NCBI GenBank assembly: GCA_951406725.2
Contig: OX597814.1
Location: forward strand, 111,910,001-111,974,000
Direction: 5' to 3'
DNA from: Octopus vulgaris
Taxonomy: Eukaryota
Length of the DNA stretch: 64,000 bases
Shown here: in pieces, positions 6,805 to 35,810 of the stretch
Position numbering within the stretch: position 1 is the first letter of the stretch
Layout of the letters: each line of letters starts with the position of its first letter
Notes under the pieces: generated by a model
Databases searched by the model: none
What the model saw: only the letters and a program-made list of their open reading frames with translations
What the model was told of the DNA's origin: nothing
Made by a program: the position numbers and the translations under genes

Positions 6805-6987
6805 TATTTTTATTTGTTTCAGTCATGTTGACTTCGGCCCTGCTGGAGCATCGCCTTTAGTCGAACATATCGACCCCCAAGACTTTTTCTTTGTAAGCTT
6901 AGCACTTATTCTAACTTTCAGTGACGAAAACACACCAGCATCAGCTGTCAAGCGATGGTAGGGGGACAAATACAGGCACACATACAC

Positions 6988-7040
<53 letters not shown>

Positions 7041-7216
7041 TATACATATATACGATGGGCTTCTTTCATTTGCCATCTAACAAATCCACTCACAAAGCTT
7101 CGGTTGGCCCGAGGCTATAGTAGAAGACACTTGCCCAAGGTTCCACGCAGCGGGACTGAACCCGGAACCAAGTGGTTGGTAAGCAAGATTTTTACCACAC
7201 AGCCACTCCTGTGCCT
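6805..7216 (-). mobile_element. SINE family A; its head portion is duplicated at ~7700-7876
   Basis: Same head, body and tail motifs as 115-482. Confidence 0.85.
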
Positions 7217-7217
7217 A

Positions 7218-7602
<385 letters not shown>

Positions 7603-7608
7603 ACTTAC

Positions 7609-7701
<93 letters not shown>

Positions 7702-7880
7702 CATATACATATATACGATGGGCTTCTTTCATTTGCCATCTAACAAATCCACTCACAAAGCTTCGGTTGGCCCGAGGCTATAGTAGAAGACACTTGCCCA
7801 AGGTTCCACGCAGCGGGACTGAACCCGGAACCAAGTGGTTGGTAAGCAAGATTTTTACCACACAGCCACTCCTGTGCCTA

Positions 7881-7974
<94 letters not shown>

Positions 7975-8142
7975 GCGGGATCAGCCATCTGAATGTGGCT
8001 AGGGACAGGGCGGGGTGGTGTTGGTGTTACTGATGCATTTAGCCCCAGGCGACTATAGACGTCACCAGAAGAGCCGACACCATCACGGTGTCCTTGCTAG
8101 CCTGTAAAGGGAGATCAGCCTCCCCGAAGATACGGATGCTAC

Positions 8143-8182
8143 ACACGGACCGGTTTCGAGGTGGTCGCCTCTCGTCAGCGCA
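8143..8182 (-). ncRNA. Type I hammerhead ribozyme (inverted copy)
   Basis: Exact reverse complement of 8582-8622. Confidence 0.88.
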
Positions 8183-8581
8183 TGGCAAGCACCGTTCTTC
8201 GTTGAGGACTTCCTCTACAGGCTAGAAATATATAGATTTTCACAGTAAACACAGTCACTGGCGTCGAAAATCTGTTCGATAACAATAATAAATCTCTAAG
8301 CGAGGTATAAACAGTAACTGCTCTGTATCGGCTCTTCTGGTGACGTCTATAGTCGCCTGGGGCTAAATGCATCAGTAACACCCCCACCACCCCGCCCTGT
8401 CCCTAGCCACATTCAGATGGCTGATCCCGCTTATATTACAGAGCAGTTACTGTTTATACCTCGCTTAGAGATTTATTATTGTTATCGAACAGATTTTCGA
8501 CGCCAGTGACTGTGTTTACTGTGAAAATCTATATATTTCTAGCCTGTAGAGGAAGTCCCTCAACGAAGAACGGTGCTTGCC

Positions 8582-8622
8582 ATGCGCTGACGAGAGGCGA
8601 CCACCTCGAAACCGGTCCGTGT
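8582..8622 (+). ncRNA. Type I hammerhead ribozyme
   Basis: ATGCG-CTGACGA-GAGG cgacca CCTC-GAAA-CCGG-TC-CGTGT: intact CUGANGA/GAAA core, 4-bp helix II, palindromic ACCGGT helix III, GUC cleavage triplet, helix I AUGCG/CGUGU that extends into a long stem. Confidence 0.9.
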
Positions 8623-8839
8623 GTAGCATCCGTATCTTCGGGGAGGCTGATCTCCCTTTACAGGCTAGCAAGGACACCGTGATGGTGTCGGCTCTTCTGG
8701 TGACGTCTATAGTCGCCTGGGGCTAAATGCATCAGTAACACCCCCACCACCCCGCCCTGTCCCTAGCCACATTCAGATGGCTGATCCCGCTTATATTACT
8801 GAGCAGTTACTGTTTATACCTCGCTTAGAGATTTATTAT

Positions 8840-8937
<98 letters not shown>

Positions 8938-9810
8938 CCCCTCTTTTCTATCTGGAATGAGGACCCAGTACTGTAGTAGCTTAGGTTTCAAGAGTCCACA
9001 TTATTTCAATATTCTGCTAGAGATCTGCGAAGTGTCAACGTGGAGGTATTCAATGAATGGTTGAGCCTATTTTTATTTGAGATACCGAGTGAATCCACAG
9101 CGCGACAAGAGACTCAAACGAAGAAGAGCAGCTCCGTCCAACTCCTTACTTCACCAGAAACGATTCATGAGAGGTGCCTATAATTTTTTGAGTGCAAAGA
9201 ATACGAGAGGAACATTTGGAGACCTGTTACAACTATAAAAACTGTTATCAGTTTGACCCTGTAATGGCCCTAGGTTTGGATTTCGTATGAAGAATACTAG
9301 ACCTTAAATTAGGCCAGAGTATATTTTTAACCACTAGCCTTAGGTGGATTAGGAATTAATGAGTTTCAAAGATATTGCGTACAATTACTGGTTTACTAAT
9401 TACGTGTCTGCCAGCTCGCCGCGGTCGAGATTAATAACCAGATGAACGTAACTGGGTGCAACTGCAAATGTGAGATGGCTATGCAGCAGAAACGTGCGTC
9501 GGACACATTTAGATCAAATATGTTATGTAACTGACTATAGAAATTAAAAAATATGCAGATGTATTTATCTCCGTATTCTTGGATAGGCACTCGGTAAAAT
9601 ATTTATAATCAAGAGAAGCGAATCCAGGATTTTACCCATAGGATGAAGTACATTGGGATTGCTTACCTCGAGTGCTACTTACCAATCAATGCGGTTAGCC
9701 ATAACTTGGGTTATAACTGAGTGCTCGAATGGCACCCATCTGAGTACTTTATCCCTATCTATTCTCTCTCTCTCTTCCTCCCCTTCTCTCTTACACACAC
9801 ACACATACAC

Positions 9811-18227: not shown

Positions 18228-18347
18228 ATGCTTACAGCACCTAGGTTTCCCAAGCGGTCACCCATCTAAGTACTAACTAGGCTCGATGTTGCTTAACTTC
18301 GGTGATCGGACAGGAACCGGTGCTTTCAATATGATATGGCTGTCCGA
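18228..18347 (-). rRNA. 5S rRNA copy (dispersed, probably a pseudogene)
   Basis: Minus strand ...ACAGCCATATCATATTGAAAGCACCGGTTCCTGTCCGATCACCGAAGTTAAGCAACATCGAGCCTAGTTAGTACTTAGATGGGTGACCGCTTGGGAAACCTAGGTGCTGTAAGCAT is a full-length (~120 nt) metazoan 5S with boxes A and C. The 5' end is mismatched to the 3' end and there is no T4 terminator. Confidence 0.92.
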
Positions 18348-25584: not shown

Positions 25585-25633
<49 letters not shown>

Positions 25634-25643
25634 TATGTGTGTA

Positions 25644-26215
25644 TAGGCGCAGGAGTGGCTGTGTGGTAAGTAGCTTGCTTACCAATCACATGGTTCCGGA
25701 TTCAGTCCCACAGCGTGGCACATTGGGCAGATGTCTTCTACTATAGCCTCAGGTCGAACAAAGCCTTGTGAGTGAATTTGGTAGACGGAAACTGAAAGAA
25801 GCGCGTCGTATAATGACACTGTGTGTGTGTGTGTGTGTGTGTGTGTATTATGTGTGTATAGGCGCAGGCGTGGCTGTGTGGTAAGAAGCTTGCTTCCCAA
25901 CCACATGGTTCCGGATTCAGTCCCACAGCGTGGCAACTTGGGCAGATGTCTTCTACTATAGCCTCGGGCCGACCAAAGCCTTGTGAGTGGATTTGGTAGA
26001 CGGAAACTGAAAGAAGCCCGTCATGTGTGTGTGTGTGTTTGGGTGTTTGGATGTTTGTGTCTGTCCTCCTACCATCGCTTGGCAACCGATGGTGTGTTTA
26101 GGTACCCGTAACTTAGCGGTTCGGCAAAGAGACCAATAGAATATGTACCAGGCTTACTAAGGGTAAGTCCAGCATGGTCGCAGTCAAACGACAGAAACAA
26201 ATAAAAGGATAAAAG
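25644..26215 (+). mobile_element. Tandem SINE family A copies (head duplicated together with flank)
   Basis: GGCGCAGG(A/C)GTGGCTGTGTGGTAAG at ~25645 and ~25861; tail at ~26170-26215. Confidence 0.88.
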
Positions 26216-35034: not shown

Positions 35035-35810
35035 TGATTTCAAATTTTGGCACCAGGCCAGCAGTTTCAGAGGCGGCGTGGGGGTGGGGGAGATAAATCG
35101 ATTACATCGACCTCAGTACTCAACTGGTACTTATTTTACCAGCCCCTTGAAAAACAAGGCCGACCTCGGCGGAATAGGAACTCACAACATGAAGCTGGAC
35201 GAAATGTCGCAAAGCATTTTATCCAGTGTAGTAACAATTCTACCAGTTCACCGCCTTAAAAGCATTTATTAATACTACTATGAATATTATGACTATTAAA
35301 CTGAGTTCAAATTCCGCCGAGGTCGACTTTGCCTTTCATCCTTTCGGGGGTCAATAAAATAAGTACCAGTTACGCACTGGGGTCGATGTAATCGACTTAA
35401 TCCGTTTGTCTGTCCTTGTTTGTCCTCCCTGTGTTTAGCCCCTTGTGTGTAGTAAAGATATAGGTATTTTGTCTGCCGGTACGTTCTGAGTTCAAATTCC
35501 GCCGAGGTCGACTTTGCCTTTCATCCTTTCGGGGTCGATTAAATAAGTACCAGTTACACACTGGGGTCGATATAATCGACTTAATCCCTTTGTCTGTCCT
35601 TGTTTATCCTCTCTGTGTTTAGCCCGTTGTGGGTAGTAAAGAAATAGGTATTTCTTTTGTCTTTACGTTCTGATTTCAAATTCCGCCGAGGTCAACTTTG
35701 CCTTTCATCCTTTCGGGGTCGATTAATTAAGTACCAGTTACGTACTGGGGTCGATCCAATCGACTGGTCCTCTCCCTCAAAATTATGGGCCTTGTGCCTA
35801 GAGTAAAATA
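35035..35810. mobile_element. SINE family B: minus copy (35035-35260) plus a tandem array of three internal units (35300-35810)
   Basis: TTCAAATTCCGCCGAGGTC recurs at ~35306, 35491 and 35676. Confidence 0.85.

Follow-up and report, generated by a model that had tools for sequence, protein, structure and literature searches.

How a ribozyme-bearing unit came to lie inside a (TA)n microsatellite of Octopus vulgaris, and what such a copy can still do, are the questions raised by this locus. In the window (i.e., the whole 64,000-nucleotide stretch analysed here), the initial annotation had placed at 7970-8840 a young, non-coding insert with a 360-bp period, a canonical type I hammerhead and a long rod, and had taken it for an active retrozyme with a viroid-like circular RNA. 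Period, hammerhead and rod are all there, but an inverted full monomer carrying a second hammerhead was overlooked (Table 1). The reading put forward in this work is that the locus is very probably a progeny copy left by a non-autonomous non-LTR retrozyme, which a Penelope-like element (PLE) with an endonuclease mobilised in trans.

Table 1. Parts of the insert and its surroundings in the window. The monomer is numbered from the ribozyme cut, which puts site A at 178-185 and site B at 222-228, about 45 nt apart.
Feature	Position	Strand	Detail or basis
Host tandem duplication, 663 bp	6966-9154	+	identity 163/163 and 215/217 nt in unique parts
(TA)n target microsatellite, left half	7879-7973		sequence
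Inverted arm	7970-8327	-	about one full monomer; 3′ end at site A, facing outward
Second, identical hammerhead (inverted arm)	8142-8184	-	predicted cut after 8148
Forward arm	8328-8845	+	1.44 monomers, period 360; 3′ end at site B
Long rod prolonging helix I	8539-8668	+	minimum-energy folds
Type I hammerhead	8581-8623	+	predicted cut after C8617; core CUGACGA at 8587
Small hairpin GACACC/GGTGTC	8673-8689	+	pair 209-215: C-G in 8, A-U in 6 sequences
Conserved hairpin, some 13 nt ahead of site A	8764-8783; 8404-8423; 7982-8001	+; +; -	folds and alignment
Tail, site A to site B	8798-8845	+	site A 8796-8798; site B 8839-8845
(TA)n target microsatellite, right half	8843-8891		sequence

Comparison of the window with itself shows the insert (about 7970-8845) lying within the (TA)n tract as two arms joined head-to-head. 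The inverted arm is the reverse complement of 8437-8798, with 98.9% identity over 362 nt, and it meets the forward arm at 8327/8328 with an overlap of 0 nt. The direct repeat formed by 8325-8485 and 8685-8845 has a spacing of exactly 360 and 3 mismatches per 161 nt, which bears out both the period and the small number of differences between copies. The unit is indeed richer in GC than its surroundings (50%, against 37% for the window); the monomer alone stands at 50.3%, and the published criterion for non-LTR retrozymes is <50%. Non-coding was also the right word for it, as the longest frames inside the insert reach 67-71 aa only, and no PLE protein match falls within the monomers.

The 1.44 units of the forward array hold one hammerhead. 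With one ribozyme per strand, the locus is unable to release a monomer by itself, and is a dead-end progeny copy. The word ‘active’ is therefore too strong for this particular locus, two consecutive complete ribozymes being the criterion of Li, Clavereau and Pollet (2026; bioRxiv 10.64898/2026.07.22.740005). Arms with at least two complete ribozymes do exist at other loci, where 19 of the 92 arms span at least two cut sites.

The host DNA around the insert is itself duplicated in tandem, the first 663-bp copy having an empty (TA)n site (about 7216-7319) and the second the insert. This duplication is very young and built of SINE-like pieces, and the idea that it could be the target duplication of the insertion was rejected by the window self-comparison. 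Elsewhere in the window there are a 5S rRNA match (18229-18347, minus strand, 99 bits), which could be a gene or a 5S-derived repeat, and SINE-like tandem arrays at 35301-35765 (184-bp units, 2.5 copies) and 25605-26022 (215-bp units, 1.9 copies).

The hammerhead has a GAGG/CCUC stem II, a GAAA, a palindromic ACCGGU and a GUC ending at 8617. ‘Canonical’ holds for this core, but not for helix III, which is made of one pair and a palindromic CCGG tetraloop (the dimer type), and Rfam returns no hammerhead at gathering score for the whole window, nor at E<=10 for 7900-8900. Dimeric hammerheads of PLEs were reportedly described by Lunse et al. in 2017. No hairpin is predicted for helix III alone, and its duplex with a second copy reaches -8.3 kcal/mol. 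The axolotl HHR_Amex1, with the same helix III of one pair and palindromic tetraloop, is active as a dimer (PMC7229834).

Support for a ribozyme under selection comes from covariation among 14 natural monomers, eight from the family of this locus (family 1) and six from a sister family (family 2), compared at 18 named pairs. Paired cells amount to 94.8%, as opposed to 88.6% in shuffles, 0/500 of which reach that value. Double changes are seen at 4/18 pairs. Three of these swap between the families, one each in distal helix I, helix II and the palindrome of helix III (its inner pair), so that the covariation should be read as that of two families with about three independent swaps, not 18, over a structure drawn from the same sequences. 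The inner pair of the palindrome could only be formed between two ribozymes. In the family 1 core, C3-G8 is found in 104 motifs, U3-A8 in nine (from seven loci), C3/A8 in four and U3/G8 in none; family 2 is without the G10.1-C11.1 pair in 6/6 sequences. This covariation, together with the C3-G8/U3-A8 swap and the helix III dimer duplex, makes it likely that the ribozyme is under selection for catalysis. U3-A8 is a natural covariation already known for the hammerhead core (PMC4209133), and in our numbering of loci (L) it marks an older subfamily of family 1 (L211, L220, L239, L241, L244, L246 and L249). Cleavage is not to be taken for granted, as one out of nine Xenopus dimers cleaved (bioRxiv 10.64898/2026.07.22.740005).

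Outside the core, helix I does run into a long rod, which is present in the minimum-energy fold (linear fold, z -3.4, 0/200 shuffles). Folded as a circle, the monomer reaches -122.4 kcal/mol (z -4.5, 0/60 shuffles), the z of the opposite strand being -2.4. The small GACACC/GGTGTC hairpin, also pointed out in the initial annotation, has a less simple standing: it is predicted in the family alignment, with compensatory changes between families 1 and 2, but is absent from the circular fold of the window copy. The conserved hairpin preceding site A is a candidate protein-binding mark. In addition, the RNAalifold structure has the start of the tail paired to helix I, on its 5′ side; this might be a switch, and the number of family-level double changes in its favour is 0.

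A pattern search of the genome finds 95 exact family 1 hammerheads (0 in a reversed-pattern control) and 619 copies of an exact 29-nt motif near the 3′ end (again 0 in the reversed control), 305 on one strand and 314 on the other. Searching the genome for tandem copies of the monomer returned a dispersed family with monomers of 359-360 nt and arrays of up to 5.7 units; the best 40 of 1862 candidates gave 156 matches, nearly all at 93-100% identity and in tandem arrays, and the 1862 should not be mistaken for a copy number, as an older sister family is included through the common tail. This sister family 2 agrees with family 1 in layout and in the last 40 nt (best 40 of 2205 candidates, 91-93% identity to the query). 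It is older and more abundant (L143-L172; e.g., L152:1303-1660), with units of about 355 nt and the same tail and A/B ends as family 1. Its own hammerhead has a 2-pair helix III with a palindromic loop, and its helix II has a C/A mismatch at the base. What first passed for a ‘foldback MITE’ with the same tail is a short two-armed copy of family 2. The tail is the best-conserved block between the two families, and its core has 357 exact genomic matches. None of the examined loci shows an LTR-like layout.

Young, non-coding and present as free tandem monomers, with a type I hammerhead expected to be dimer-dependent, the family is, judged by these characters, a non-LTR retrozyme of Octopus vulgaris, of a kind known from other animals, and the initial annotation was right in this respect. 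A transposon protein encoded by this genome has 99% identity with a predicted protein of Octopus vulgaris. No run on record as RNA contains the stretch; part of it is contained in 14 runs guessed to be RNA, and the four runs inspected consisted of contigs only, lacking joints and strand, which speaks neither for nor against expression. At least half of its sequence words are present in six runs of uncertain kind bearing three organism labels. The 255-nt 3′ flank of L146, behind the tail, is found in contigs of three runs with two organism labels, so this family 2 insertion may be shared between the two.

The ends of the arms follow a simple rule. In a first set of 61 loci, picked for length or for an intact ribozyme, 94/98 arm 3′ ends are at A or B; the 36 two-armed loci among the 61 comprise 34 A+B, no A+A, no B+B and two atypical. 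A second set, made of all C1 loci with the 3′ motif and with the ribozyme disregarded, added 25 new non-duplicate loci. Twelve of these are single-armed and 13 two-armed, the latter being nine A+B, one A+A (L227), one A plus atypical and two unclassified. All in all, A+B is found in 43/44 classifiable two-armed inserts (p 3e-12 vs 50:50). Target duplications of 11-13 bp are legible at 9/36 two-armed loci, the others being in (TA)n. In family 2, where the query forced one B end, 11 of 30 loci are two-armed, nine of them A+B and two atypical. Site A of this family has the same register as in family 1 in spite of its different sequence, which suggests a ruler, not base pairing.

The family thus carries the PLE insertion signature, in form of an inverted 5′-truncated arm, a one-sided tail and (TA)n targets. 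The junctions between arms mostly have 0-2 nt of overlap or extra bases, with at least 3 nt in 6/46 (p 0.024). The long junction microhomology apparent from BLAST overlaps was given up, exact counting having given mostly 0-2 nt. Different PLE-type elements were observed in the same (TA)n tract beside retrozyme arms at L055, L081, L016 and L028 (target reuse).

This signature bears on whether the unit could be spread as a DNA-level repeat (satellite, MITE or Helitron-like) or as a viroid-like RNA replicon, with the ribozyme being incidental. The short two-armed copies do resemble foldback MITEs, and the monomer does fold as a compact rod, but the variable 5′ truncation, the two fixed 3′ ends, the 11-13-bp duplications and the geometry shared with coding PLEs, as well as the dispersal on both strands and the compensatory change in the catalytic core, make this extremely improbable. 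DNA transposition in particular is largely refuted. As for ‘viroid-like’, the term adds nothing, the evidence being that of reverse-transcribed genomic copies with a Penelope insertion signature.

In the twin priming of L1 elements, both target ends prime cDNA, which leaves an inverted 5′ segment; the first site is the poly(A) tail and the second is variable. The two sites of the octopus retrozyme, by contrast, are both fixed, adjacent and internal. Fold-back could also yield an inverted arm, through self-priming on an antisense template; this was put forward for the Penelopes of rotifers from their palindromic junctions (PMC3846280), and the A+A insert L227 has a near-palindromic junction. 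We find this unlikely as a general explanation here, given that the 5′ ends are at most 12 nt apart at only 6/46 resolved junctions (p 0.10), that A arms often exceed their B partners by whole turns (L003, L067), and that one insert has arms of two different elements.

Coding PLEs of the same genome tell more about the enzyme. The survey scored the best 150 of 6136 GIY-YIG candidates, and the three elements considered here (P1, P2 and P4) were assigned to their clade by motif alone. The ORF of P1 (781 aa) carries RT and GIY-YIG and is intact in 16/18 loci, all of which were picked for long frames. The element is young (L125-L140); a 479-aa frame of no known family overlaps this ORF from upstream, and the terminal repeat contains a minimal hammerhead motif with U3-A8. 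P2 (L251 and L193; best 40 of 3064 candidates scored) has an open frame of 1163 aa, whose long N-terminal region is rich in asparagine, a feature also reported from rotifer Penelopes (PMC3846280); its 3′ untranslated region contains a (TA)n tract. P4 (L252-L255; 3473 candidates) is seen in its 3′ part only. Its ORF is followed by a polypyrimidine tract of about 300 nt, within which 2/4 copies end, and its terminal repeat has a minimal hammerhead-like motif.

These elements pair their ends as the retrozyme does. The two 3′ ends of P2 are separated by about 53 nt, and 8/8 fully visible two-ended loci pair the short with the long one; in P1 the same pairing is found in 3/3 loci (L107, L130, L132). 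Moreover, in one chimeric insert a retrozyme A-arm stands head-to-head with a 5′-truncated P2 ending at its long end, with a 4-nt overlap. Its four copies (L173-L176), three on C28 with common flanks and one on C2 with its own flank, go back to a single ancestral event, the C2 copy probably being a later retrotransposed daughter. The chimera, which obeys the A+B rule across two RNAs, gives the best indication of the mobiliser. Taken together, the A+B pairing, the same rule in coding PLEs and the joint insertion of retrozyme and P2 favour two-ended target-primed reverse transcription by a Penelope enzyme.

The identity of the partner is a different matter. At L076 (2325-3800) a retrozyme arm and the 3′ part of P4 share one orientation and are joined within the polypyrimidine tract; this junction is unique genome-wide, the same tract is broken in 2/4 other P4 copies, and the join may be due to a template switch or a deletion. 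The 3′ region of the retrozyme has no significant similarity to those of P1 or P2 (p 0.24-0.89), nor to that of P4. A likeness of its tail to the P1 and P2 3′ ends, noticed by eye, was likewise not significant, and P4 was discarded as a parent element, as the junction is unique and its terminal repeat unrelated. With a single P2 event, dissimilar 3′ regions and the P4 join at L076, the assignment is not firm: P2 has about an even chance of being the partner, another PLE family is a sizeable but lesser possibility, and P4 is rather unlikely.

The same data speak to a refuting case named in the initial annotation itself, namely copies that are merely the terminal repeat (pLTR) of a coding PLE; the case does not apply to the loci examined. 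In a related reading, the monomer would be a pLTR cut loose from an undiscovered coding PLE, and its copies the truncated 3′ ends of that element. The insertion anatomy is purely that of a PLE, vertebrate retrozymes are described as related to pLTRs (bioRxiv 10.64898/2026.07.22.740005), the arm at L076 directly follows a PLE 3′ end of the same orientation, and PLE diversity was sampled in part, to the extent given above. Long arms, however, continue as further monomers and not as coding sequence, the termini of P1, P2 and P4 are unrelated to the monomer, and a screen of 117 loci finds arms attached to PLE coding sequence only at the four copies of the P2 chimera and at L076, the one-off P4 junction. 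We hold this reading to be quite improbable for the present copies; an ancient pLTR origin of the monomer is a separate claim, and a likely one.

If a PLE enzyme did insert the retrozyme, the next question is which form of the RNA it copied. The cut site is crossed by 82/92 arms, whilst 3/92 end within 6 nt of it, and in the unbiased C1 set 22/49 arms cross it by >8 nt and 2/49 end at most 10 nt after it; no pile-up of 5′ ends at the cut was found among the arms surveyed. Arms reading through the cut indicate that the template was a circle or an uncleaved multimer, and not usually a cleaved linear monomer. Arms ending 4-6 nt past the cut (L006, L082, L220, L245 and L246, the last clipped by the edge of its region) are a post hoc hint. 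Units diverge by about 1.0% within a locus and 2.8% between loci, and 8/72 locus-private alleles occur in both arms, from which it follows that the two arms usually come from one RNA or source.

Between circle and multimer the choice is a close one, and allele patterns within loci did not separate them. The two private alleles of L068 are found in all covering units (5/5 and 4/4), a pattern that fits a monomeric circle. L071 and L087, on the other hand, are mosaic arrays, and L025 has a period-3 pattern; mosaic arrays are not the product of a single monomeric circle. The same PLE enzyme might then have copied an uncleaved linear multimer transcribed from a genomic array, with the ribozyme being a passenger or serving another step, which would agree with these mosaics, with the alleles common to the same turn of both arms (L071, L079), and with in vitro work in which a PLE accepted RNA that had not been processed, and insertion was normal with mutant ribozymes (PMC11167929). 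But cross-arm differences are equal for same-turn and different-turn units (0.0109 vs 0.0108), and no source for the private alleles of L068 is present among the sampled loci. Copying of this kind would, in addition, only shorten arrays (the median C1 arm is 181 nt), yet arrays of >5 units exist, and there is a weak post hoc excess of A-arms of about one turn (5/42 at 347-362 nt), possibly a selection effect. The linear multimer therefore stays a serious candidate, if somewhat short of an even chance, and we lean slightly towards the circle.

The history of such an insertion may then be pictured as follows. Source loci with at least two tandem units would be transcribed, and the hammerheads, going by known retrozymes and by the covariation, would cut as dimers via the palindromic helix III, releasing 360-nt monomers that are possibly ligated to circles. 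The PLE protein, probably a dimer with one start site per target end, would nick an AT-rich target on both strands, the nicks being 11-13 bp apart, as the target duplications show. Each DNA 3′ end primes reverse transcription internally, one at A and the other at B, as the paired ends show, and both cDNAs read past the ribozyme site on a circle or an uncleaved multimer, before halting at scattered points and being joined with little or no homology. This produces the head-to-head arms with the tail at one end. It is hard not to go one step further and imagine a dimeric PLE that primes a staggered break at two fixed RNA sites, rolls round the 360-nt circle and co-inserts two RNAs, but this complete version is offered tentatively, as somewhat more likely to be wrong than right.

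Among known systems, the metazoan non-LTR retrozymes (coral, mussel 350-390 nt, axolotl Rtz331/353; PMC7229834) have the same size, a type I hammerhead and non-coding tandems, with target duplications of >4 bp when present, compared to 11-13 bp in the octopus family. Their expression, cleavage and circles have been shown, whereas those of the octopus family are putative; unlike what is described here, the main text of that paper mentions neither inverted arms nor a cephalopod family. PLEs were proposed there as retrozyme mobilisers (Cervera and de la Pena 2020, PMC7229834), and Li, Clavereau and Pollet (bioRxiv 10.64898/2026.07.22.740005) see in retrozymes non-autonomous derivatives of PLEs. 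Their evidence, from 31 vertebrates and 4 invertebrates, consists of co-occurrence and pLTR phylogeny, with no mollusc among the species given in the body of the preprint, whereas ours is insertion geometry and joint insertion, for a monomer lacking homology to the pLTRs tested.

The Anolis element Poseidon (Frangieh et al. 2024, PMC11167929) has the same two adjacent reverse transcription start sites defining a tail, and AT-rich targets as well. In vitro, both strands are cut and extended, the protein is predicted to be a dimer and ribozyme cleavage is unnecessary. Its authors observed no difference between strands in the start site and do not report pairing of the two within an insertion, as opposed to the 43/44 of the octopus; besides, the octopus RNA is a non-coding parasite. 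Endonuclease-bearing (EN+) PLEs with a CX2-5CxxC linker, of the Neptune/Nematis type (PMC8557442; PMC3846280), also have an inverted 5′-truncated copy and (TA)n targets; the one-sided tail is optional in them (PMC8557442) and nearly a rule in the octopus retrozyme, an element that codes nothing.

The initial annotation had guessed the family to be undescribed, and our literature search indeed found no cephalopod retrozyme, although relatives may be listed in the supplements to PMC7229834 and to the preprint. The main text of the 2026 repeat annotation of Octopus vulgaris (PMC13282606) does not mention ribozymes, and the squid genome paper (PMC6962438) gives 235 Rfam hammerhead hits without analysis in the part bearing on them. 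No statement of strict A+B pairing or of joint retrozyme-PLE insertion was found either, in a search that was thin on subscription papers. The novelty is in the A+B pairing signature and the joint insertion, the retrozyme class itself being already known.

By itself, the extension of this class to cephalopods is modest. The mobiliser of retrozymes, the role of circles as templates and the tandem and inverted insertions of PLEs are, however, points left open in the texts consulted for this comparison (PMC7229834, PMC8557442, PMC11167929 and the preprint), and the octopus family, with two start sites mapped on its 360-nt RNA, copies that are young, intact candidate enzymes in its own genome and a joint insertion, offers a test system for all three. 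If true, the reading of a dimer working at two sites would account for the inverted, head-to-head arrangement and the tail on one side in PLEs generally. P2 would then be the specific mobiliser of an animal retrozyme, and the octopus family a natural tracer of the Penelope integration cycle.
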